From assembly GCA_038248065.1 (NCBI GenBank), contig JBBRUD010000001.1:22594-86593 (forward strand): a DNA stretch of 64,000 nucleotides. The letters are read 5' to 3'. Shown here piece by piece: positions 362 to 42,255 of this stretch. Below the pieces are notes generated by a model, which was not told the DNA's origin, ran no database searches, and saw nothing but the letters and a program-made list of their open reading frames with translations. Position 1 is the first letter of the stretch, and each line of letters opens with the position of its first letter. The translations under genes and the position numbers were made by a program. The DNA comes from Desulfovibrionales bacterium. Lineage in GTDB: Bacteria; Desulfobacterota; Desulfovibrionia; Desulfovibrionales; Desulfovibrionaceae.

Positions 362-1528
362 CTACTCTGAAATGATCTTATCCTGGGCTTCGGTGAGGGT
401 GAACTCGCCTTTTTCCAGTTTGGCCTTGAGATCCTGGGCTATTTCCAGGGACAGGGCGTAGCTGGTCAGGGGCACGGTCTGCACTTTTTCGCCGTTGACC
501 GTAATCTGGCCGGATTTAAGCTCTTCAAAGCTCACCTGGGCCAGTGTTCTGTTCACACCGTTGGGATAGTCATGGCCGTAGTCACGTACGGGCATGGTGA
601 TGTCTGCGTCGCTGACGCCGGTGAAGAAAGCCATCTCCTCATCCAGGATGGGGATGGGGATGCCCACACCCACGGCCATGGAACAGCCGTAGCCCATGAT
701 GCTCACCCCGCGTATCCATTTGGCCTGCATGCCCTTGAGGTCGCCCTTGAGCATGAGCGTGCCCGCAGCCACTTCGGGAATGCCGCGTTCGTTGCGGGGC
801 GGCTTCGTGTTGTGCTGCGTGCCCGCACCCAATACCCAGCCGGTGCCGCCGCCCAGCCAGATTTTCACTCCGAGCCCGATGGTGCGAAAATAGGGATCGT
901 TGAACAGCGGGGAAAGCTGTCCTGCCGTGGCGTAGTTGGCGTTGCGGCAGTTGGGCTTGAGCGGCCCCATGTATGTATAGATCACCTGGCTGGTGAGGTT
1001 CACGGCCACGTTGTAGCTCTGGTAGCAGTTGCGCGGGTTCAGAAGTTCCGCGTGCTTGAGCTCGGCCAGGGTGAATTCTTTCTCCAACTCGGTGCGGGGG
1101 TAGCAGTCGGTGCCGTAGCCCGTGGCCTTCAAACGCACGGCCTTGCCGCGCAGCAGGTCTTCGATGACGTGGCCACCGCCGTATTTGAAGCGTCCGGGAT
1201 AGACCTTATTCAGGGGATCGTCTGCGCGCGGCTCCGTGCAGCCCAGATAGGCGTCCACAGCGGCCAAGCCCGCGTAGCAGGGAACGTTGTTCAACGACAC
1301 CTGACTGGCCTTCATGGTGGGCGGCTGCTGACCGAAATTGAACAGCAGGCCTGAGGAGCACATGGGCGAGAAGGTGCCCGTGGTCACCACGTCCACTTCC
1401 TTGGCTGCGGCCACCTTGCCCTTGCGACGCACCATATCAACCATCTCTTCAGCGGTGAGGATGACGGCCTGGCCCTTGCGGATGCGCTCATTTATCTCTT
1501 TGACGGTCTTTTGAACCTCTGGACTCAT
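362..1528 (-). CDS. DUF39/COG1900 homocysteine biosynthesis protein (aspartate-semialdehyde sulfur-transfer family)
   Basis: Sequence is typical of the family (MSPEVQKTVKEINERIRKGQAVILTAEEM.., GTFSPMCSSG, YGGGHVIEDLL, GVGIPIPILDEE). Start trimmed to the ATG at 1528, since the longer track ORF runs into the dnaA promoter region. Confidence 0.8.
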   Translation of the reverse strand: MSPEVQKTVKEINERIRKGQAVILTAEEMVDMVRRKGKVAAAKEVDVVTTGTFSPMCSSGLLFNFGQQPPTMKASQVSLNNVPCYAGLAAVDAYLGCTEPRADDPLNKVYPGRFKYGGGHVIEDLLRGKAVRLKATGYGTDCYPRTELEKEFTLAELKHAELLNPRNCYQSYNVAVNLTSQVIYTYMGPLKPNCRNANYATAGQLSPLFNDPYFRTIGLGVKIWLGGGTGWVLGAGTQHNTKPPRNERGIPEVAAGTLMLKGDLKGMQAKWIRGVSIMGYGCSMAVGVGIPIPILDEEMAFFTGVSDADITMPVRDYGHDYPNGVNRTLAQVSFEELKSGQITVNGEKVQTVPLTSYALSLEIAQDLKAKLEKGEFTLTEAQDKIISE

Positions 1529-1685
1529 GGAAAACCTCGTAGAAGCGTCTGAAAAGCGTTGGGACAATGGCCCAAAACCCCCACCTTGGCAAGGCAGCCC
1601 ATCTGGCCTCTGCGGCTGTTTTGCACTCCGCCGGGATTTTGTGTAGGCAGATAGCCTATTCAGAGAACGCACAAGCCGGTATGCC

Positions 1686-3002
1686 GTGCTCAAAGAACAA
1701 CTTCGCCGCCATCTTGCCCAGATCACACCCGAAGCCGACCTGCACCGCTGGTTCGACGCTCTTGAGCTTTTTCCTCTGCCCGATTCCCTGGAGATCGTGG
1801 TGGAATACCCCCACGCCTATTTCGCCCAGTGGTTCGAGAGCGCAGTCAAAGACCACTTCGAGAAGCAGGTCAGCCTCTTCCTGGGGCCAGGGTACACCCT
1901 GCGCTACCGCTACCGCCCCGCCTCCAGAGCCGAGGCGGGGCGGGTCGGCTCCATGCTCCAGGCCAGCAACATCGATTTCCCTTTCGGCCATGAATGTACT
2001 TTTGAACAGTTCTTCACCAACCAAAAGAACCTCTTTCCCCTGGCTTCGGCTAAAGAAATAGCCAAAGCCAAAGAGGTGAAATTCAATCCTTTCGTTGTTC
2101 ACGGTGATCCCGGCACAGGCAAGACCCACCTGCTGCGCTGCATGGCCAACGAAGTGAGCAAACATCAGGACAAGAACTTTATTTTCTTCGGCACTCTGGA
2201 CGACTTGGCCGATCTCTATGCATCGGGCGCTTCTGAGAGCGATGATTCCGCTGTACCCGTACGGGTGCATTTGGCCGCATTCCGGTATTTCTTTCTCGAC
2301 GACCTGCACCGTCTTGACGAATATCCTCATCTTGGCAACGAATTGCTCAGTCTGTTTAATCTTTTCAACGACTCCAAACGTCAGATGGCCTTTTCTTCAG
2401 CTCAAAAGATTTCCGAATGCCAAAGCATCCCCGACCCTTTGAAAAACAGGCTCGAAAGCGGGTTGGTGGTGCAGCTCTCCGCGCCAGATCTCGATGTGCG
2501 GGTTAAATTTGTCCAGGATCACTGCCAGCGCAAAAAAATCTCCCTCACCAAAGCCCAGATGCTCACTCTGGCACAGCGCTATCCCGAGTTGCGCGGCCTC
2601 ACCGGCGTTCTCAACAAATTCCAGGCGTTCCGCGAACTTCTCAAACGCGACATTACCGACGCCATCTTCGAAAACATCCTCGGCCGCGATGAAGAACATC
2701 TGGCCCCCCAAATAACAGCTGAAACCATCATGGAAGCCGTGGCCGACCGCTTCCAGTTGGAAACGCGGGAACTCACCGGCAGCAAACGCCAACAGAACAT
2801 CGTCCAGGCCCGACAGGTGGCCATGCTGCTCTGCCGTGAGGAACTGGGCTTATCCTACCCGGCCCTGGGTCGGCTTTTCGGCGGCAAAGACCACAGTACC
2901 GTGCTGTATTCTATTAATAAAATTCTCTCACTCCAGACGCAGAATAAAGAACTCAAAGAACTGGTGGCCGCACTGCGTAAAACCTGCCGCCAGAGGGAAT
3001 AA
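1686..3002 (+). CDS. dnaA: Chromosomal replication initiator DnaA
   Basis: Walker A GDPGTGKTHLL. C-terminal DNA-binding domain RQQNIVQARQVAMLLCREELGLSYPALGRLFGGKDHSTVLYSINKI. GTG start. Confidence 0.95.
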   Translation: MLKEQLRRHLAQITPEADLHRWFDALELFPLPDSLEIVVEYPHAYFAQWFESAVKDHFEKQVSLFLGPGYTLRYRYRPASRAEAGRVGSMLQASNIDFPFGHECTFEQFFTNQKNLFPLASAKEIAKAKEVKFNPFVVHGDPGTGKTHLLRCMANEVSKHQDKNFIFFGTLDDLADLYASGASESDDSAVPVRVHLAAFRYFFLDDLHRLDEYPHLGNELLSLFNLFNDSKRQMAFSSAQKISECQSIPDPLKNRLESGLVVQLSAPDLDVRVKFVQDHCQRKKISLTKAQMLTLAQRYPELRGLTGVLNKFQAFRELLKRDITDAIFENILGRDEEHLAPQITAETIMEAVADRFQLETRELTGSKRQQNIVQARQVAMLLCREELGLSYPALGRLFGGKDHSTVLYSINKILSLQTQNKELKELVAALRKTCRQRE

Positions 3003-3008
3003 CACCAC

Positions 3009-3728
3009 ATGGAATTGTTCAGCCTAGCCAACGCCATTGCTTTTCTGACGCTGTCCGCACTCGAAATCGTGCTGGGCATCGACAACATCGTGTTCATCGC
3101 CATCATCACCAACCGCCTGCCGGAGGCCGTGCAAAGCCGTGCGCGGCGATTGGGCCTGGTCCTGGCCATGGGCACGCGCATCCTGCTGTTGCTCTCCATC
3201 AGCTGGATCATGCGCCTCACCACGCCCCTGTTCGCTGTTTTCGACTTTTCCTTCAGTGGGCGCGATATCATCCTGCTGGCAGGCGGGTTGTTCCTCATCG
3301 CCAAATCTACCGTGGAGATTCATGAGAAAGTGGAACAGGAACCCCATGAAGACTCACACAGTGCAAAAAAGGTTCTGACCTTCGGGGCGGCAGTGACCCA
3401 GATCGCCATTCTGGACATCATCTTCTCCCTGGATTCCGTGATCACCGCCGTGGGCATGGTCAATGAACTTTCGATCATGGTGGCTGCGGTGGTGGCCGCC
3501 GTGCTGGTGATGATGGTATTCGCCGACGCGGTGAGCCATTTCGTCAACCGACATCCCTCCATTCAGATGCTGGCCCTGTCATTTCTCATACTCATCGGCG
3601 TGTTCCTGGTAGCCGAAAGCCTGGGCAAGCACATTGAGCGCACCTACATCTATTTCGCCATGGCCTTTTCATTGACCGTGGAATTGTTGAATATCCGGTC
3701 ACGCTCCGCGCGAAAAACCGAGGGATAA
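3009..3728 (+). CDS. TerC-family integral membrane protein
   Basis: N-terminus LSALEIVLGIDNIVFIAI and internal ILDIIFSLDSVITAVG are characteristic TerC repeats. Multiple TM segments. Confidence 0.85.
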   Translation: MELFSLANAIAFLTLSALEIVLGIDNIVFIAIITNRLPEAVQSRARRLGLVLAMGTRILLLLSISWIMRLTTPLFAVFDFSFSGRDIILLAGGLFLIAKSTVEIHEKVEQEPHEDSHSAKKVLTFGAAVTQIAILDIIFSLDSVITAVGMVNELSIMVAAVVAAVLVMMVFADAVSHFVNRHPSIQMLALSFLILIGVFLVAESLGKHIERTYIYFAMAFSLTVELLNIRSRSARKTEG

Positions 3729-4378
3729 GCTTTCATGCCCTTTAATGAATTGGATCTGCAGAAGTCTGGGAGCCGGGTCCCTGTCCTTGAGCTTAAGCGG
3801 GAGCTGCGACCATATTCATAGCAATCGTTTGGGCAGCCACACGTGAATTTTACTAAATTATTTTAAATTTTCAGTATGTTAATTATGATACGATCCTTTG
3901 TTGGGCGTCTTGGCGCATTAACTGCCCAACAAGGGGACCGTAAGGAACCGAGGCAAAGTCCTTCCCTTGGAGACCGCTCCTCCGGTTCCTTACGACAGCT
4001 AAACCGATCTCTTAAAATATGCATAAAATTAAGGTGTTAACCATGTTTTGAACTTATCGCCGTGCTCTATAACAACTACAATCTTTAAAAAGCTTTTTTA
4101 TGATTGAAGAGAATACTCTGAAAGAAGCCTTGAAAGGAAAAGCCTCCCTGCCGAATTTTCCGTCTCTTCACGGCAATTATCCCTGTCGCTCTTTGTCCTG
4201 ATTTTCTTCACTTCGTAACACACCTTAATAGTTGATGAATACTTAAGCTCGTCAGAAAATCCAGTAATGGCGCGGGTCCTTGCCCTCTTTTCTTTTTGGC
4301 GTTTTCCGGTATACTCCATTGACCGCGCTGGACCAGAATATCCCATTTATCCCGCATGCCGAGCTCAAGGAGACGTCC
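3729..4378. other. AT-rich 650-bp non-coding gap upstream of dnaN; candidate oriC / DNA-unwinding region
   Basis: Most AT-rich stretch of the window by eye (e.g. TACTAAATTATTTTAAATTTTCAGTATGTTAATTATGATA at about 3851-3890). Only degenerate DnaA-box-like TTATCCC motifs, at 4177-4185 and 4347-4355. Lies between the dnaA-terC and dnaN-gyrB-gyrA blocks. Confidence 0.4.
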
Positions 4379-8100
<3,722 letters not shown>

Positions 8101-8136
8101 CCCCGCTCCAGCGCACCCGCGATCACGAGGGCATAC

Positions 8137-10653
8137 GTGTCAGATACGATCAGCATCGAAGAAGAGCTTAAGAAGTCCTACCTGGAATATTCCATGTCCG
8201 TCATCGTGGGCCGGGCCATCCCGGACGTGCGCGACGGCCTGAAGCCGGTGCATCGGCGGGTGTTGTTCGCCATGCATGAGCTTTCCAACGGCTGGAACCG
8301 CCCGTACAAGAAATCCGCCCGCGTCGTCGGTGACGTCATCGGTAAATACCACCCCCACGGTGACCAGTCGGTCTACGACGCCCTTGTCCGCATGGCCCAG
8401 GAATTTTCCATGCGCGACCCTCTGGTCGACGGCCAAGGTAACTTCGGCTCCATCGACGGCGACGCCGCTGCGGCCATGCGTTACACAGAAGTGCGCATGT
8501 CCCGCCTCACCGGCGAGTTTCTGGCTGATATCGACAAAGAGACCGTCGATTTCAGGCCCAACTACGACAACTCCCTGCAAGAGCCTTCGGTGCTGCCCAC
8601 AAAGGTGCCCAACCTGCTGCTTAATGGCACCACAGGCATCGCCGTTGGCATGGCCACCAATATTCCGCCCCATAACCTGGGCGAGCTGTGTGACGGCATT
8701 CTGCATGTGATTGATAATCCCGCCTGCAGCGTGGACGAGGTGATCGCGCACATTCCCGGCCCGGATTTTCCCACCGGCGCTTCCATCTATTGCGGCCAGG
8801 GGTTGCTTGACGCCTACCGTACCGGTCGCGGCTCCATCAAAATGCGCGGCACCGTGGAGATCGAGCAGCAGAAAAAAGGTCAGGAGCTGGTGGTCATCCG
8901 GGCCATCCCTTACGCGCTGAACAAATCCACACTGGTGGAGAAGATCGCGGCGCTGATTCATGATAAAAAAATTGAAGGCGTCAGCGACCTGCGCGACGAG
9001 TCCGACCGCAAAGGCATCCGGGTGGTGCTGGAGCTCAAGCGCGGCACCATCGCTGATATCGTCATCAACAGCCTGTACAAGTTCACCCCGCTGGAAAGCT
9101 CCTTCGGCATCAATATGCTTGTTGTCGCCAGCAACCGGCCGGTGCTGTGCAATCTGAAGATGGTGCTGGAATATTTCCTGGAACACCGCAAGGATGTCAT
9201 CCTGCGCCGTTCGCGCTTCGACCTGCGCAAAAGCCAGGAGCGGGCGCATATTCTGGAAGGCCTGCGCATCGCTTTGGATCACATCGACGAGGTGGTGAAG
9301 CTTATCCGCGCCTCGAAAAATGGCGCTGAGGCTAAAGAACGGTTGATGGAGCGCTTTGAACTCTCTGATAGGCAGAGCCAGGCCATTCTGGATATGCGCT
9401 TACAGCGTTTGACCAACATGGAGCGCGACAAGCTTATCGAAGAGTACGAAGGGCTGCTCAAGTTCATCGCCTATCTCATGTCCATTCTGGAGAACGAAGA
9501 GGTGCTGCGCGGCGTCATCCGCGACGAAGTTGTGGAGATCAAAGAAAAATTCGCTACCCCGCGTAAAACTGAGATTCTGGCCAGCATTGAAGGCATCGAC
9601 ATCGAAGACCTGATCCCGGATGAGAACGTTGTCATCACCCTGTCGCGCCGTGGCTATATCAAGCGCACGCCGCTGGATACCTACCAGCAGCAGCGCCGTG
9701 GCGGAAAGGGCATAGCGGGCGTGCACACTTCGGGCGAAGATTTCATCCAGAGTTTCTGCATCACCTCCAATCACCAGCATCTGCTGCTGTTCACCAACCT
9801 GGGCAAGATGTACCAGCTCAAGGTGCACCAGATTCCCGAGGGATCGCGCACTGCCAAGGGCATGCACATCGCCAACCTGCTGCCCATGGAGAAGGACGAG
9901 TTCGTAGCCACGGCTCTTACCATCCGCGAGTTCTCCGAAGACCGGTACTTCCTGTTCGTCACCCGCAAGGGCATGATCAAGCGCACCGCCATCATCCTGT
10001 ACAAGAACTGTCGTTCCGGTGGTATCCGGGCCGTCAATTTGAACGATGGCGACGAGCTTCTGGATGTGAAGGAAATTCTCGCCGAAGCCGAAGTGGTGCT
10101 GGTGACTGAACTGGGCCTGGCTATCCGCTTCGCAGTGGGCGATGTGCGCCCCATGGGCCGCACAGCAACGGGTGTGCGCGGCATCGCCCTTCGCGGCAAG
10201 GACCGCGTGGCCTCGGGCGTGGTGGTTGGCAGCACCGAGCGCGACCAGATTCTTACTGTCGCGGCCAATGGCTTCGGCAAGCGCACCGATGTTGAGCATT
10301 ATCGCCTGCAAAGCCGTGGCGGCAAGGGCGTGATCAATATGAAGGTCACCCAGAAGACCGGCCACGTCATCGGGGCGACCATGGTTGCCAACGAAGACGA
10401 AGTGTTGCTCCTGACCTCTGCCAACAAGATCATCCGTATTCCTGTCGGCGGCGTTCGCAACGTCGGACGGGCCTCACAGGGCGTCACCTTGGTGGCCATG
10501 GACGATGGCATACAGGTCATGGGCTTTGATCTGGTTGAACCCAGCATAGAAGCTCTGGACGCCCCGGCGGTCGATGCTGCGGTCACTCCTTCAGCACAGC
10601 CTTCCGCTGTCTCCGGCTCCGGTGCAACCGAAGAGTCAGGTTCGGATTCATGA
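8137..10653 (+). CDS. gyrA: DNA gyrase subunit A
   Basis: [48 protein letters not shown]-terminal beta-pinwheel repeats. GTG start. Confidence 0.98.
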
Positions 10654-23235: not shown

Positions 23236-23365
23236 TATTACCAAACGTCAGGTTGAAAAAGCGCGTAAAATATACGGGATTCAAAAGGGGCATTGCCCCT
23301 TTTGCCGCCGGAGGCCTCATTACTTCTCCGCCCTTCCGCCTCTCCGCTCTCTCTGCCTCTAGCCC
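23236..23365. repeat. Composite GC-hairpin repeat, short type, truncated copy (B3) plus CT-rich tail
   Basis: ..CGCGTAAAATATACGGGATTCAAAAGGGGC-ATT-GCCCCTTTTGCCGCCGGAGGCCTC followed by TTCTCCGCCCTTCCGCCTCTCCGCTCTCTCTGCCTC. Confidence 0.8.
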
Positions 23366-30231: not shown

Positions 30232-30960
30232 TCAAAAGGACTTTGTAGGCTGGGCATTGGCGGTCCAGCCCGGCAGGGGCGTGAGCAGCGCTTCGGCGTC
30301 AAGATCGACGCTCAGGACGCAGAAGGCCCCGACTGGAATGGGCAAAATGAGTCTGCCCATCCCCCACAACGGAAAGCCTTCCCGCCAGGAGCAGGGCGGA
30401 CCTGCCAGGACGCTGGCCTCGCGTACCGGTGCGTCACAGGCGACGCTTCGCACCAGCGAGCGCATGCCCCACGGGGTGAACCAGCGGGCCTTGCCGAGCA
30501 GTTTGTGCTTGTGCGCCTCCAGCCGGTAGAGGGATATGCCATTGAGATAGCCCACCAGCAAGGCGTGCTTGGCGACCCTGGCCGCCTCGGCCAGTACGGC
30601 CTGAGGCTGGGAAACGAATTCCAGCACGTTGAGCAGGGCTACGTAATCGAATTCATTATCATCGTAGGGCAGATTTACGGCGTCGCCCAGGTGGAGTTCG
30701 GCCCGGTTGGCCAGGCGCTCGCGGCTGGCCGCCAGCATTACCGGCGCATTGTCAAAGCCGGTGACGTCGAAACCTGCGGTATGGAAGAACTCCAGAAAGA
30801 CGCCCGGCCCACAGCCCACGTCCAGCAAGGTCCGCCCACGGCGGGGCCAGCCCGCAGTCAGCCGCTCCAGCAAATGGCACTCCTGGGTCAGAGCGTAAGA
30901 CCCTGCCCGGCTGGCGCGCCAGCGTTCAAAGCGGGTGAGGTCGTCTCTGTCCCAGATCAT
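30232..30960 (-). CDS. Class I SAM-dependent methyltransferase (type 11)
   Basis: LLDVGCGPGVF motif I. Start trimmed to the ATG at 30960, because the track extension translates the adjacent repeat. Confidence 0.8.
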   Translation of the reverse strand: MIWDRDDLTRFERWRASRAGSYALTQECHLLERLTAGWPRRGRTLLDVGCGPGVFLEFFHTAGFDVTGFDNAPVMLAASRERLANRAELHLGDAVNLPYDDNEFDYVALLNVLEFVSQPQAVLAEAARVAKHALLVGYLNGISLYRLEAHKHKLLGKARWFTPWGMRSLVRSVACDAPVREASVLAGPPCSWREGFPLWGMGRLILPIPVGAFCVLSVDLDAEALLTPLPGWTANAQPTKSF

Positions 30961-30965
30961 GTGGT

Positions 30966-31152
30966 GTGCCTCCGGCGGCCAGAGGGGGCGCTGCCCCCTC
31001 TGGACACCCCTGCCGGGGGGCCATTTGCCCCCCGGACCCCCCATTGAGCTTCGCGTCGCCAGTCGTATACAAGTGTCGTCGTGCAAAATAATGGGGGGGT
31101 CTGGGGGTGCCCTGCACCCCCAGCGGGGTCCAGGGGCAGCGCCCCTGGCTCC
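30966..31152. repeat. Composite GC-hairpin repeat, long type (copy A2)
   Basis: GCCTCCGGCGGCC + CAGAGGGGGC-GCT-GCCCCCTCTG + CCGGGGGGCC-ATTT-GCCCCCCGG + ..TGCAAAATAATGGGGGGG.. + GGGGGTGCC-CT-GCACCCCC + CCAGGGGC-AGC-GCCCCTGG. Confidence 0.85.
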
Positions 31153-32856: not shown

Positions 32857-32976
32857 GGTGCGTCCTTTACTGCGGGTGGATGGCGGCAGGTGCGGCAGGG
32901 CCATGCGCACGGCGTCGCTCATGGCAGAGATAGGGAAAAACACACGGCGGGTCAACGCGGAGGGTTAGGAAGGGGT

Positions 32977-33126
32977 GCCTCCGGCGGCCGGGGGGACAAT
33001 CTCCCCCCGGACCCCCCATATAGCTTTGCGTCGCCAACAGCTACGAGTGTCGCCGCGCAAAATATTGGGGGGGGACTGGGGGTGCCCAGCACCCCCAGCG
33101 GGGTCAAGGGGCGGAGCCCCTTGCTC
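32977..33126. repeat. Composite GC-hairpin repeat, long type (copy A3)
   Basis: Same module order and orientation as 30966-31152. It is the reverse complement of 171-328. Confidence 0.85.
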
Positions 33127-33336
33127 TTAATTTTCAGCGTAGGGCAAGGCGTCGGTGCCGTGTTCTTCGTAGACGGCCTTTTGGGCTTGTTTGAAGTCGT
33201 CGACGGTGAAATCGTACCCGTTTTCACGCAGGAAAGCCCAGTTTGCAGCGGGGTCCACCGCCTCATTCACGGTTTTTCTGAAGACGGCATCGTCGCGCAT
33301 TCGCTGCATATAGGCCGTGGCGCTTTCAATTGACAT
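33127..33336 (-). CDS. Nif11-domain small protein (69 aa)
   Basis: MSIESATAYMQRMRDDAVFRKTVNEAVDPAANWAFLRENGYDFTVDDFKQAQ matches the Nif11 N-terminal domain pattern. AGGAGG RBS before the ATG at 33336. Confidence 0.65.
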   Translation of the reverse strand: MSIESATAYMQRMRDDAVFRKTVNEAVDPAANWAFLRENGYDFTVDDFKQAQKAVYEEHGTDALPYAEN

Positions 33337-33467: not shown

Positions 33468-34205
33468 ATGGAAATGACACCAAGTGAGAAAGAACGCATC
33501 CGTCTGGACATCCAGAAGAAATACCAGCGTGTGGCCGCCAGCCCGGAGGGGAACTTCCGTTTTTCCACTGGCCGTGCGGGCCTGGAAGGGTTGGGGTACG
33601 ACCGGCTGCTTCTCAAGCGGTTGCCGGACGCGGTTGCGCAATTCTATTGCGGGGTGGGCAATCCCTTCGCCATTGGGGCGGCGCAGCCTGGCGATCACGT
33701 TTTGGACGTAGGCTGCGGGGCCGGGGTGGATACCATCCTGGCCGGATATATGGTCGGCCCTGAGGGGCTGGCCTTCGGGGTGGACGGCTCCCCCTCAATG
33801 CTCGCCCGTGCTCAGGACAACGCGACCCTGGCCGGTATGGGCACCGTCGGCTTCAAACAGGCCGACGCCGAAAGCCTGCCCTTTAGCGATGCCACCTTCG
33901 ACCTGCTTATCTCCAACGGTGTCTACAATCTGGTGCTCGACAAGCCCAAAGCCCTGGCCGAGGCCTTCCGGGTGCTCAAACCCGGCGGGCGGTTGCAGAT
34001 AGCCGACCAGATGCTTCTGGGGGCGCCGCCGGACCCGGCTGAGGCAGCGCTCAACTGGTTCAAGTGACAAGGCGGCGCCACACCGGGAACGGCGTTCCTG
34101 GCACTGCTCAACGAGATAGGATTCACAGAGGCCGCATCCCACGGCGAAACCGGCGTGCAAAGCTCGCCCGTTACCATGGGCATGCTCTTTAGCGCCCGGA
34201 GATGA
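33468..34205 (+). CDS. ArsM/UbiE-like SAM-dependent methyltransferase, candidate selenoprotein (in-frame TGA at 34065-34067 read as Sec)
   Basis: Track ORF ends at the TGA (..EAALNWFK*). The same frame continues QGGATPGTAFLALLNEIGFTEAASHGETGVQSSPVTMGMLFSARR to a TGA at 34203-34205. The W-x-x-[C/U]-x-x-G-A .. AGF segment is the family-typical C-terminus. A hairpin lies downstream of the TGA. Confidence 0.6.
34083..34101 (+). promoter_or_regulatory. Candidate bacterial SECIS-like stem-loop
   Basis: CCGGGAAC-GGC-GTTCCTGG: 8 pairs including one G-U. Begins 16 nt after the in-frame UGA and has a G-rich apical loop. Confidence 0.35.
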
Positions 34206-34227
34206 GACTGAGACAGAGATGGCTGGA

Positions 34228-34431
34228 GACGCCGCCGGCGGCCAGGGAGGGCGCTGCCCTCCCTGGACCCTCCTGCTAGAGGGCCACTGGCCCTCTGGAC
34301 TCCCGTATATGGGGGCCGTAATCCAGCGGCTGGTTGCGACGACGAACCAACGCGTAAATATAAGGGATTCAAAAGGGGCATTGCCCCTTTTGCCGCCGGA
34401 GGCTCATCACCCTTCCCCCTCCTCATCTCCG
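34228..34431. repeat. Composite GC-hairpin repeat, short type (copy B2) plus CT-rich tail
   Basis: GCCGCCGGCGGCC + CAGGGAGGGC-GCT-GCCCTCCCTG + AGAGGGCC-ACT-GGCCCTCT + ..AACGCGTAAATATAAGGGATTCAAAAGGGGC-ATT-GCCCCTTTTGCCGCCGGAGGCTC + CT-rich tail. Confidence 0.85.
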
Positions 34432-35058
34432 CTATCTTTCAGCGCGAATCAAAAAAATGCCGTGTGTGGCCAGGAGGTTGGGCAGGTGTTTGACCACCAG
34501 TCCGGTGGTTTGGGTAAGTGAGCGTTTGATGGCCACGGTGTCTTCGATGGCGATGGTGTTTTTCAGGCAGAACTGCGTAAAATCATGGAGCGTCACCACC
34601 CGGATGTTGGGCGTGTCGTGCCAGTCGAAGGGCAGTTCCGGGGTGACGGGTGCCTGGCCTTGGCAGAGCAGCTGGCAGCGGTTGCGCCAGTGGGCGAAGT
34701 TGGGGAAGCTGACGATGCCGCGCTTGCCCACCCGCAGCATCTCGCGGATGAGTGTCAAGGGTGTGGGCACCTGCTGCAGGGTCTGGGAGAGCACCACGAA
34801 GTCGAAGGATCCGTCGGGATAATCGGTAATCTCGCGAATCAGGTCACCTTGCAGGATGGAAACGCCCCGAGCGATGCCTTCGGCGGCTTTTTCCTCGTCC
34901 TGCTCCACGCCAAAGCCCCGCACCTGCTTGAAAGCCAGCAGATATTCCAGCAGTTCCCCCTGCCCGCAGCCCAGATCGAGTACTTTGGAGCCGGGGGTGA
35001 TCCATCCTGCGATGATGGAAAGGTCGTAGCGGACTTGGGCCAGTGGATGGCGGATCAT
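34432..35058 (-). CDS. metW: Methionine biosynthesis protein MetW
   Basis: YDLSIIAGWITPGSKVLDLGCGQGELLEYL.. is typical MetW. Its ATG overlaps the metX stop. Start trimmed to 35058. Confidence 0.9.
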   Translation of the reverse strand: MIRHPLAQVRYDLSIIAGWITPGSKVLDLGCGQGELLEYLLAFKQVRGFGVEQDEEKAAEGIARGVSILQGDLIREITDYPDGSFDFVVLSQTLQQVPTPLTLIREMLRVGKRGIVSFPNFAHWRNRCQLLCQGQAPVTPELPFDWHDTPNIRVVTLHDFTQFCLKNTIAIEDTVAIKRSLTQTTGLVVKHLPNLLATHGIFLIRAER

Positions 35059-40358: not shown

Positions 40359-40422
40359 AACCCCCTCTCCCCAAAAAACTTTTTAGCGGCTTCGCGGGGA
40401 TGGGCGGGAAGATTGGCACGTA

Positions 40423-40998
40423 TTGGGCAATGCCGACGGTATGGATATGCGCAAACAGGTTGAAGCCACCTGGCGGGAAAGGGTGCTCCTGGCCGTTACG
40501 GGCAGGTATGGCGTCATCGGCATCAATGTCTTGATTGTGCTGGTGAGTGGGTTGTCCCTGCGGGTCATGCTGCCGCTGATCCTCAACACCGTGGATAACG
40601 TCAAGGAACTCGAGGATATCGCCGAATGCCTTGGCGTTATTCTCATCGGCTACGGCGTGGCCGTGGAGGAGCGCCAGGCCTTCATGCGCATCTTCAGGCT
40701 CTACCCGGCCTTCGAGTCTCCGCTTCAGAGCCATGTGGATCATTTCTGCCACGAATACGGCCTGTGCTACCTGCTGCTGGGCCTGTTCATGGAAGTCTGC
40801 GTGGCCTGCATCAAGATCCCCAACGCCATCATCGACACCGAGAACATTGAAGACATTGTTTTCGCTATCAGTGCTTTTTTTCTGGTCTGGAACGCCATTC
40901 TCATGCTCCGCCATATCTGGTTTCTGGCCCGGCTGGGTCGGCGTTCGCCTCAAAACCATGAAACGTCAGAAGCGGCCTGCTCCATATCAGAGCGCTGA
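40423..40998 (+). CDS. Hypothetical membrane protein
   Basis: ORF with about 4 hydrophobic segments. No motif recognised and the start is uncertain. Confidence 0.5.
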   Translation: MGNADGMDMRKQVEATWRERVLLAVTGRYGVIGINVLIVLVSGLSLRVMLPLILNTVDNVKELEDIAECLGVILIGYGVAVEERQAFMRIFRLYPAFESPLQSHVDHFCHEYGLCYLLLGLFMEVCVACIKIPNAIIDTENIEDIVFAISAFFLVWNAILMLRHIWFLARLGRRSPQNHETSEAACSISER

Positions 40999-41013
40999 AG
41001 GAAGGAATTACCG

Positions 41014-42255
41014 GTGCTCATGAATGGCTACGTAATGGCGGCTCTGGCTGCGCTGGTGTTTTCATATGCAGTGACGGCCCTGGCTCGCGGGCTCAATGTC
41101 CGGTCGCTCCAGAACGCTCTTCCCGCCGAATTTTCCGGGGTTTACGACGCTACGGATTACGCCAATTCCCAGGCCTATGTCCGGGCAGGGGCCGGGCTTG
41201 CCGCGATTGAGGAAACAGCCGGGCTGCTGCTTACGGCTGGGTTTATCGTTTGCGGGGGGTTCGGCTGGCTTGATGGCTGGACCAGAAGCCTGGGCTATTC
41301 CGAACTGTCTACGGGCCTGATCTTTATCGGCTCTTTGACCCTGGTCCAGGCGGTTTTCGGCCTGCCTTTCGAAGTGTGGAACACCTTCGTGCTGGAGGCC
41401 CGTTTCGGGTTCAACACCACCACCGTCAAGGTGTTCATCACCGACAGGCTCAAGGGGATGGCCCTTGGCCTGGTGCTGGGCGGCGTACTGCTGACTGCCG
41501 TGCTCGTGCTGTTCCAGCAACTCGGTGATTGGGCCTGGCTTGCGGCCTGGGGCACGGTGACCCTCTTTACCGTGGTGATGCTCCTGGTGGCCCCGGTGTG
41601 GATTCTTCCGCTCTTCAATACCTTCAAACCGTTGGAGCCCGGCCCCCTACGCCAGGCCATCGAGGCCTACGCAACCGGGCAGGGGTTTTCCCTCTCGGGC
41701 ATCTTCGTCATGGATGGCTCCAAACGCTCCACCAAGGCCAATGCCTTCTTTACCGGTTTTGGTAAACGAAAACGCATCAGTTTGTATGACACTTTGATCA
41801 ACAGACTGACGACGGAAGAGCTGGTGGCCGTGCTTGCCCACGAGGTTGGCCACTCCAAGCATCATCATCTGGTGAAGGGGCTGCTGCTGGCCGTGGCCAA
41901 GATGGGGGCGCTGCTCTTTGTCTTGCAGTTGTTTTTGAGCGGCGGGGAGTTCCAGCGCGGCTTCGGTGTTTCCGTGCCTTCAGTCCATGCGGGGCTGATG
42001 CTTTTTGGACTGGTGTATCAGCCGGTGGCCCTGGCGCTTTCCGTTCTGGCCAACGCCTTTTCTCGGCGCTGGGAGTACCAGGCCGACGCCTTTGCCGCAG
42101 CAGGGCAGGGCGGGCCGCAGGCCATGGTGGACGCCTTGAAGGCCCTCTCCGTGGCCAACCTCTCCAACCTGACGCCGCATCCGCTGATGGTCTGGCTGAA
42201 CTACAGCCACCCTCCGGTGCTAGCGCGCATCCGGGCCATTACTGGCCAGGCTTGA
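41014..42255 (+). CDS. M48-family (Ste24/HtpX-like) zinc metallopeptidase
   Basis: HEVGH zinc motif (LAHEVGHSKHHH), multiple N-terminal TM helices, C-terminal SHPPVLARI. Confidence 0.88.
   Translation: MLMNGYVMAALAALVFSYAVTALARGLNVRSLQNALPAEFSGVYDATDYANSQAYVRAGAGLAAIEETAGLLLTAGFIVCGGFGWLDGWTRSLGYSELSTGLIFIGSLTLVQAVFGLPFEVWNTFVLEARFGFNTTTVKVFITDRLKGMALGLVLGGVLLTAVLVLFQQLGDWAWLAAWGTVTLFTVVMLLVAPVWILPLFNTFKPLEPGPLRQAIEAYATGQGFSLSGIFVMDGSKRSTKANAFFTGFGKRKRISLYDTLINRLTTEELVAVLAHEVGHSKHHHLVKGLLLAVAKMGALLFVLQLFLSGGEFQRGFGVSVPSVHAGLMLFGLVYQPVALALSVLANAFSRRWEYQADAFAAAGQGGPQAMVDALKALSVANLSNLTPHPLMVWLNYSHPPVLARIRAITGQA

Follow-up and report, generated by a model that had tools for sequence, protein, structure and literature searches.

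A Stand-Alone ArsM-like Methyltransferase of Desulfovibrionaceae with a Probable In-Frame Selenocysteine Codon

A gene on the forward strand of the 64-kb window (the whole stretch of DNA analysed here), at 33468-34205, is best read as encoding one 245-residue, stand-alone, single-domain selenoprotein of the Sec arsenite-methyltransferase-like (UxxG) family, a reading to which we assign a probability of about 0.88. The coding sequence comprises 245 codons plus a stop and specifies an ArsM-like class I SAM methyltransferase with selenocysteine (Sec) at codon 200. Given what is found at this position in homologues, the UGA at 34065-34067 almost certainly encodes selenocysteine. The finding owes its significance to the comparison with related sequences and not to the sequence of the window alone, in which a 45-codon open extension would arise by chance with p ~0.24 at this base composition. 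The selenoprotein family is already known, and the gene is a further member of it rather than a new kind of system. The original prediction had spoken of a missed candidate selenoenzyme; its Sec reading is supported, and what was missed, by automatic annotation only, is one gene of a known family.

Results

The Reading Frame and Its Parts

The frame opens with an ATG at 33468, a start that is backed by homologues beginning MNMTP and MDLTP, and runs for 199 codons to ...AEAALNWFK, where it meets the TGA at 34065-34067. Past this codon, 45 further codons are open in that frame (QGGATPGTAFLALLNEIGFTEAASHGETGVQSSPVTMGMLFSARR) before a second TGA is reached at 34203-34205. The 199-residue ORF, its TGA and the open frame beyond had all been predicted, and each lies at the predicted coordinates. 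The stretch that follows the UGA includes QGGATPGTAFLALLNEIGFTEAASHGETGVQSSPVTMGMLFSAR, and the junction reads NWFK-U-QGG, which makes U-Q-G-G an instance of the UxxG motif.

The read-through product matches the Pfam families Methyltransf_31, Methyltransf_25 and Methyltransf_11 over residues 71-182, as expected of a class I SAM methyltransferase. Its SAM-binding motif, VLDVGCGAG (residues 78-86, 33699-33725), occupies columns that are invariant in the alignment and pairs with VLDLGAGSG of Chlamydomonas ArsM (CrArsM). Two further positions bear on the question of substrate. Cys61, encoded by TGC at 33648-33650 within YCGVGNP, is the sole cysteine conserved within the sub-clade of this gene, and Gly151, encoded at 33918-33920 within ISNGVYNL, stands in the column where canonical ArsM has its As(III)-binding Cys (ISNCVINL) when aligned to 5evj with HMMER.

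Between 33433 and 33467 lies a sigma-70-like promoter match (TTGATC, a 17-nt spacer and TAGAAT), which ends 6 nt 5' of the ATG. No Shine-Dalgarno sequence is found upstream of the ATG, and the transcript of the selenoprotein gene may have little or no leader.

The UGA Codon Alternates with Cysteine

An in-frame TGA stands at the aligned codon in at least 26 related loci from GTDB species representatives and from metagenome and Logan contigs, and among these Sec-type loci neither TAA nor TAG occurs there; the true terminal stops of the TGA-type loci are a mixture of TGA, TAA and TAG. The loci span several phyla, Desulfobacterota among them; their MAGs bear the labels delta proteobacteria, Nitrospirota/Thermodesulfovibrionia, Actinomycetota, Acidobacteriota-type, Planctomycetota, Rokuibacteriota and others. 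In the metagenome part of the search, where a single protein served as the query and the peptide patterns were too specific, the yield was only three useful Sec-type loci (L085-L087). At least 11 more distant homologues, canonical ArsM-type genes among them, have a Cys codon (TGC or TGT) at the same position, and residue 200 pairs with the Cys of 'ECLAGA' in the solved ArsM 5evj. The proposal that the UGA occupies the site of a conserved cysteine is borne out by this pattern, with Cys in the Cys-type homologues and in the ArsM structures and TGA exactly there in the orthologues.

Database records render the family differently. Of the 120 database homologues that rank best, 119 have calls of ~198-238 residues, cover only ~80% of the query and share the same end point. 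The single long call (P0004) has W at the codon and then continues EGGAIPGKVFLALLEQAGF...SSPATKGMLF, which matches the tail of the present gene.

The Sequence Past the UGA Is Coding and Completes the Fold

We compared the tail (residues 201-245, 34068-34202) with that of L082, a relative that is 69% identical. Amino-acid identity in this part is 80%, dN/dS is 0.275 (pS 0.42, pN 0.15), and there are 6 nucleotide differences at first, 7 at second and 17 at third codon positions; the other two frames are interrupted by stops. Judged by this substitution pattern, the tail evolves as coding sequence under purifying selection. Conservation in the homologue alignments likewise upholds the earlier suggestion that the downstream text is the C-terminus of the family. 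Similarity to L082 ceases at the second TGA, which marks 34203-34205 as the true stop codon; beyond it lies an intergenic repeat with a non-coding GC pattern. A second Sec at this terminal TGA (GAC TGA follows) was considered and rejected, as conservation with L082 does not extend past it and the sequence there belongs to the repeat.

The tail is predicted to form a helix (206-217) and two strands (220-227 and 236-244). An AlphaFold model of the 245-residue product reaches a pTM of 0.85, with the tail helix and both strands at high pLDDT, and its nearest folds in the PDB are CrArsM (5evj), CmArsM (6cx6 and 4fs8) and human AS3MT (8xt7), with query-normalised TM scores of 0.63-0.68. In terms of this model, the 199-residue termination product would be deprived of the last helix and the two final strands of the sheet and would probably be inactive.

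A Covarying Hairpin Follows the UGA in Sec-Type Genes

A hairpin at 34083-34101, with an 8-bp stem (34083-34090 and 34094-34101; arms CCGGGAAC and GTTCCTGG) and an apical GGC loop (34091-34093), starts at the 16th nucleotide past the UGA, leaving 15 nt in between. Its local fold has an energy of -11.3 kcal/mol. The 71-nt region 34060-34130 folds no better than shuffled sequences (z = -0.54), and folding of a single sequence is uninformative in DNA this rich in GC.

Comparison across loci is more telling. All Sec-type loci listed have a stable hairpin 13-19 nt past the UGA, with an apical loop that is GGN or contains GU. Stem sequence and register vary between clades, and the hairpin is therefore not a mere by-product of the conserved peptide. 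In the clade of the present gene (seven sequences), 100% of the cells are paired and the closing pair appears as A-U, C-G or G-C, the one pair with changes on both sides. A second clade (eight sequences) has 97.9% of cells paired and three pairs with both-sided changes, and a third (seven sequences) 100% and two such pairs. When the 3' partner was moved by 1-3 columns as a slid-register control, pairing went down to 20-68% in all three clades. Folding of nucleotides 10-42 past the codon gave a mean energy of -11.7 kcal/mol for 27 Sec-type genes (26 loci and the present gene) versus -6.0 kcal/mol for 12 Cys-type loci (Mann-Whitney p ~2e-5), and in this region the Cys-type loci have no equivalent hairpin.

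Rfam, searched at gathering threshold across the entire window, yields no match, and at E<=10 over 33900-34450 only noise; to our knowledge, it holds no general bacterial SECIS model. An 8-bp stem with a 3-nt loop that opens with GG ~23 nt past the UGA fits the bacterial SECIS criteria of bSECISearch. Bacterial SECIS elements of the E. coli fdhF type share with the present hairpin a location inside the coding region directly 3' of the UGA, an upper stem of 8 bp and a small loop at the apex with G residues at its start. The hairpin differs from fdhF in that it has no sequence similarity to it and no evident bulged U, and its recognition by SelB is putative. The SECIS-compatible stem-loop that had been predicted is thus present where it was placed, and it is conserved, covarying and SECIS-like.

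Relation to Known Selenoprotein Families

With Cys written at position 200, the best NCBIfam matches of the read-through product are three curated selenoprotein models: ArsM/AhpD (NF041537, 305 bits), ArsM/DUF2284 (NF041536, 303 bits) and methyltransferase/UXPK-star (NF047649, 288 bits). All three match over positions 4-247, that is over the whole methyltransferase domain including the tail and Sec. The scores lie under the cutoffs of the three models (510, 575 and 460) because these models describe two-domain fusions and the present product ends at residue 245, without a second domain or a second Sec. Among the loci listed, the two GTDB relatives nearest to the gene, L002 and L003, themselves belong to these fusion types, and L003, taken as a positive control, passes with 599 against 510. 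The stand-alone forms L004, L006 and L014 fall under every curated cutoff, as does the present protein, and it is because all curated cutoffs are missed that the records store the stand-alone forms truncated.

The family has been described. The entry in a 2026 review on the selenoproteome of prokaryotes gives an arsenite methyltransferase (NF008823, motif UxxG, one Sec, WP_011987699.1) as experimentally verified, cited to Fomenko et al. 2007 (PMC13188914), and the same review lists the three fusion families, credited to Haft & Tolstoy 2025 (PMC13188914). A 2022 review carries the same arsenite methyltransferase entry (PMC9312934). At the level of that table entry, the present protein shares the ArsM-type domain, the UxxG motif and a single Sec with the reviewed family, but it scores below the cutoff of NF008823, the general ArsM model (162.6 versus 263).

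Resemblance to Canonical ArsM Is Partial

The best sequence match in the PDB is Chlamydomonas ArsM (5evj, E 1.7e-21), and identity to canonical ArsM and AS3MT proteins (5evj, 4fs8, 6cx6 and 8xt7) is 25-30%, with a matching fold and SAM motif. Sec200 stands at the column equivalent to Cys224 of CmArsM. The other signature cysteines are a different matter. In the 5evj alignment, 'ISNGVYNL' faces 'ISNCVINL' and 'YCGVGNP' faces 'WGCGNP', and the equivalents of canonical C44, C72 and C174 are Gly35, Val63 and Gly151; Cys61 is offset, lying two residues upstream of the 'GCGNP' cysteine column, and residues 1-60 contain no Cys. Canonical chains have 300-387 residues with a C-terminal domain of ~100 residues, whereas the present product has 245 residues and lacks this domain. 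'ArsM-like', the term used in the original prediction, suits the fold, the SAM motif and the placement of Sec at a ligand column but should not be taken to mean canonical ArsM, since the protein lacks the C-terminal domain and has only one of the four signature positions, that of Sec, occupied by a chalcogen residue.

This divergence extends to the whole Sec-type group. In a motif comparison of 36 aligned genes (the present gene and 35 loci), canonical forms carry the GCGNP, SNC and CxxG cysteines, whereas every Sec form shows Val (GVGNP) and Gly (SNG) in place of the first two. At the Cys61 column, Ala or Ser is found in the other Sec sub-clades, which leaves Sec as their only conserved chalcogen residue. 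A divergent sub-clade of four loci (L024, L025, L027 and L034, each match beginning at 3001) reads NWFA-U-IAGAKEGG, INGIFNLNP and FAGVSNV; it has no conserved cysteine besides Sec, and its hairpin has its own register and a GGU-type loop. Binding of a metalloid by these four in the manner of ArsM is unlikely.

Gene Neighbourhood

The gene is flanked by glnS, metW, metX and a divergent 69-residue Nif11-domain gene (33127-33336, reverse strand; Pfam PF07862, E 2.3e-12). No ars genes lie near it, and NCBIfam scans of 40 ORFs detected none in the window. The divergent Nif11 arrangement recurs in L001 and L082 (310-516 on the reverse strand of the latter) and was not seen in more distant loci; we know of no functional link between a Nif11 gene and a Sec methyltransferase. 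In the closest relative (P0002, 78% identity), a MetW-domain gene is directly downstream on the contig. A Thermodesulfovibrionales MAG (L011, 666-3740) provides the only clear arsenic-resistance context among the loci inspected in detail: its stand-alone Sec-type gene adjoins arsR, a metallophosphoesterase and an ACR3 arsenite pump, the last of which is bona fide (465.6 bits against a cutoff of 282.8). The Sec-type gene of L002 comes after a gene of the ArsR family and one for a SHOCT protein.

Host and Sec Machinery

GyrB places the host in the Desulfovibrionaceae, in line with the earlier assumption of a sulfate reducer, with Fundidesulfovibrio spp. as its closest named relatives (75-76% identity). 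Use of Sec is common in the Desulfovibrionaceae. Within the window, ARAGORN finds no tRNA or tRNA-Sec, and NCBIfam scans of 40 ORFs find no selA, selB or selD.

Discussion

How might the UGA be decoded? We envision that SelB and Sec-tRNA(Sec), recruited via the in-frame hairpin at 34083-34101, would insert Sec at 34065-34067, and that translation would run on for 45 codons to add the helix and the pair of beta-strands that complete the Rossmann-type fold of the SAM methyltransferase. Termination at 199 residues might then be confined to conditions of limiting selenium or limiting Sec machinery. Actual insertion of Sec in this organism is, in our view, very likely. Sec200 would occupy the substrate-ligating Cys site of ArsM (Cys224 of CmArsM) and could serve as a ligand to a soft metalloid, with As(III) the likeliest, beside the methyl group of SAM, with Cys61 as a possible second ligand or selenenyl-sulfide partner.

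The identity of the substrate is the part of this scenario on which the evidence divides, and arsenite itself has, in our estimate, somewhat less than an even chance. A tentative alternative is that the protein is a genuine Sec enzyme whose substrate is not arsenite: a distinct subfamily in which Sec, as the single essential chalcogen residue, ligates Se, Te, Sb or Hg as an alternative soft element, or acts as a methyl-accepting nucleophile. The cysteines equivalent to C72 and C174 are missing from all Sec-type loci listed, and several sub-clades lack any conserved Cys besides Sec; yet Sec itself sits exactly at the arsenic-ligand column of ArsM. The C-terminal domain of ArsM is absent and the NF008823 score is under its cutoff; yet ArsM and AS3MT are the closest solved relatives in sequence and in fold, and both the NCBI curators and the review call the family arsenite methyltransferase. 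Genomic context is similarly divided, with no ars genes near the present gene or most other loci and with related forms fused to redox-type domains (AhpD CxxU, DUF2284) instead of ars functions, as against the arsR-acr3 neighbourhood in L011. Taken for itself, a soft-element substrate other than arsenite, or some other role for Sec, is conceivable, if doubtful. That the Sec clade (SNG, GVGNP and UxxG in a stand-alone protein of ~245 residues) forms a separate enzyme class and is not an arsenite methyltransferase at all seems unlikely to us. Were it such a class, one Sec might replace the three- or four-cysteine metalloid site of ArsM, either as a nucleophile that relays the methyl group covalently or for methylation of a different soft element (Se, Te, Sb, Hg).

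Could the codon be something other than Sec? Translation might terminate normally at the UGA, or it might read through with a near-cognate Trp or Cys or under a reassigned code, the hairpin then serving another role such as mRNA stability. TGA terminates 23 of the 55 other predicted ORFs in the window, however, and is therefore not reassigned in this genome. A gene call that renders the codon as Trp (P0004) is set against an alternation that is specifically with Cys, which is the signature of Sec. Normal termination would yield a 199-residue product without two core beta-strands, and the hairpin combines a position and a G-rich loop that fit a bacterial SECIS with absence from the Cys forms. 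The Sec machinery is not seen within the window, but the host belongs to a family known to use Sec widely. In sum, we consider normal termination or decoding without Sec very improbable. Even less can be said for a pseudogene or truncated gene, in which a nonsense mutation made the TGA and the open frame beyond is a decaying remnant: the modest length of the extension and the 199-residue database call would suit it, but with TGA kept at one codon in at least 26 loci across phyla, purifying selection on the tail and a covarying hairpin that accompanies TGA forms only, this notion is effectively refuted by the comparative data.

On the reading as a Sec-containing methyltransferase, a 199-residue "methyltransferase domain-containing protein" would be corrected to a 245-residue selenoenzyme. 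Truncated records include the NCBI protein of the present gene and RefSeq WP_243310841.1 from Fundidesulfovibrio agrisoli. Counts of arsM and surveys of the selenoproteome in anoxic sediments and soils can be expected to miss or mis-size the stand-alone single-Sec forms, because these lie below every NCBIfam cutoff and are stored truncated. Our analysis flags an under-counted stand-alone subfamily, which will not surprise selenoprotein specialists. The loss of three ArsM cysteines in this clade would mean either that a single Sec is able to stand in for a metalloid site of several Cys or that the substrate is another one.

Other Features of the Window

A composition scan revealed no other convincing UGA read-through gene in the window. 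The most suggestive case, 40387-42255 on the forward strand with a frame shared across the TGA at 40996, was rejected as two adjacent genes in the same frame, a small membrane protein followed by an HExxH (M48-type) peptidase that has an RBS of its own and starts at an ATG at 41020.

Between hisS and glnS, the reverse strand carries another ORF for a SAM methyltransferase (30232-31086), which is MetW-like, with weak similarity to the DVU_1556 family. As listed, its 5' part enters a REP-like repeat, and its true start is therefore probably further downstream. Such GC-rich intergenic repeats, REP- or MITE-like in character, are found at 7934-8100, 23262-23346, 30961-31151, 32972-33126 and 34206-34431, the last copy beginning directly past the true stop of the selenoprotein gene. 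Their modules are perfect hairpins, for example CCAGGGAGGGC-GCT-GCCCTCCCTGG, and spurious ORFs in the mechanical list run across them.

An ORF at 362-1726 (reverse strand) resembles 'methanogenesis marker 16 metalloprotein' (TIGR03287, 127.6 bits, under the cutoff), which is unexpected in Desulfovibrionaceae. The genes dnaA, dnaN, gyrB and gyrA are clustered at 1686-10653, and the window therefore probably adjoins the chromosomal replication origin.
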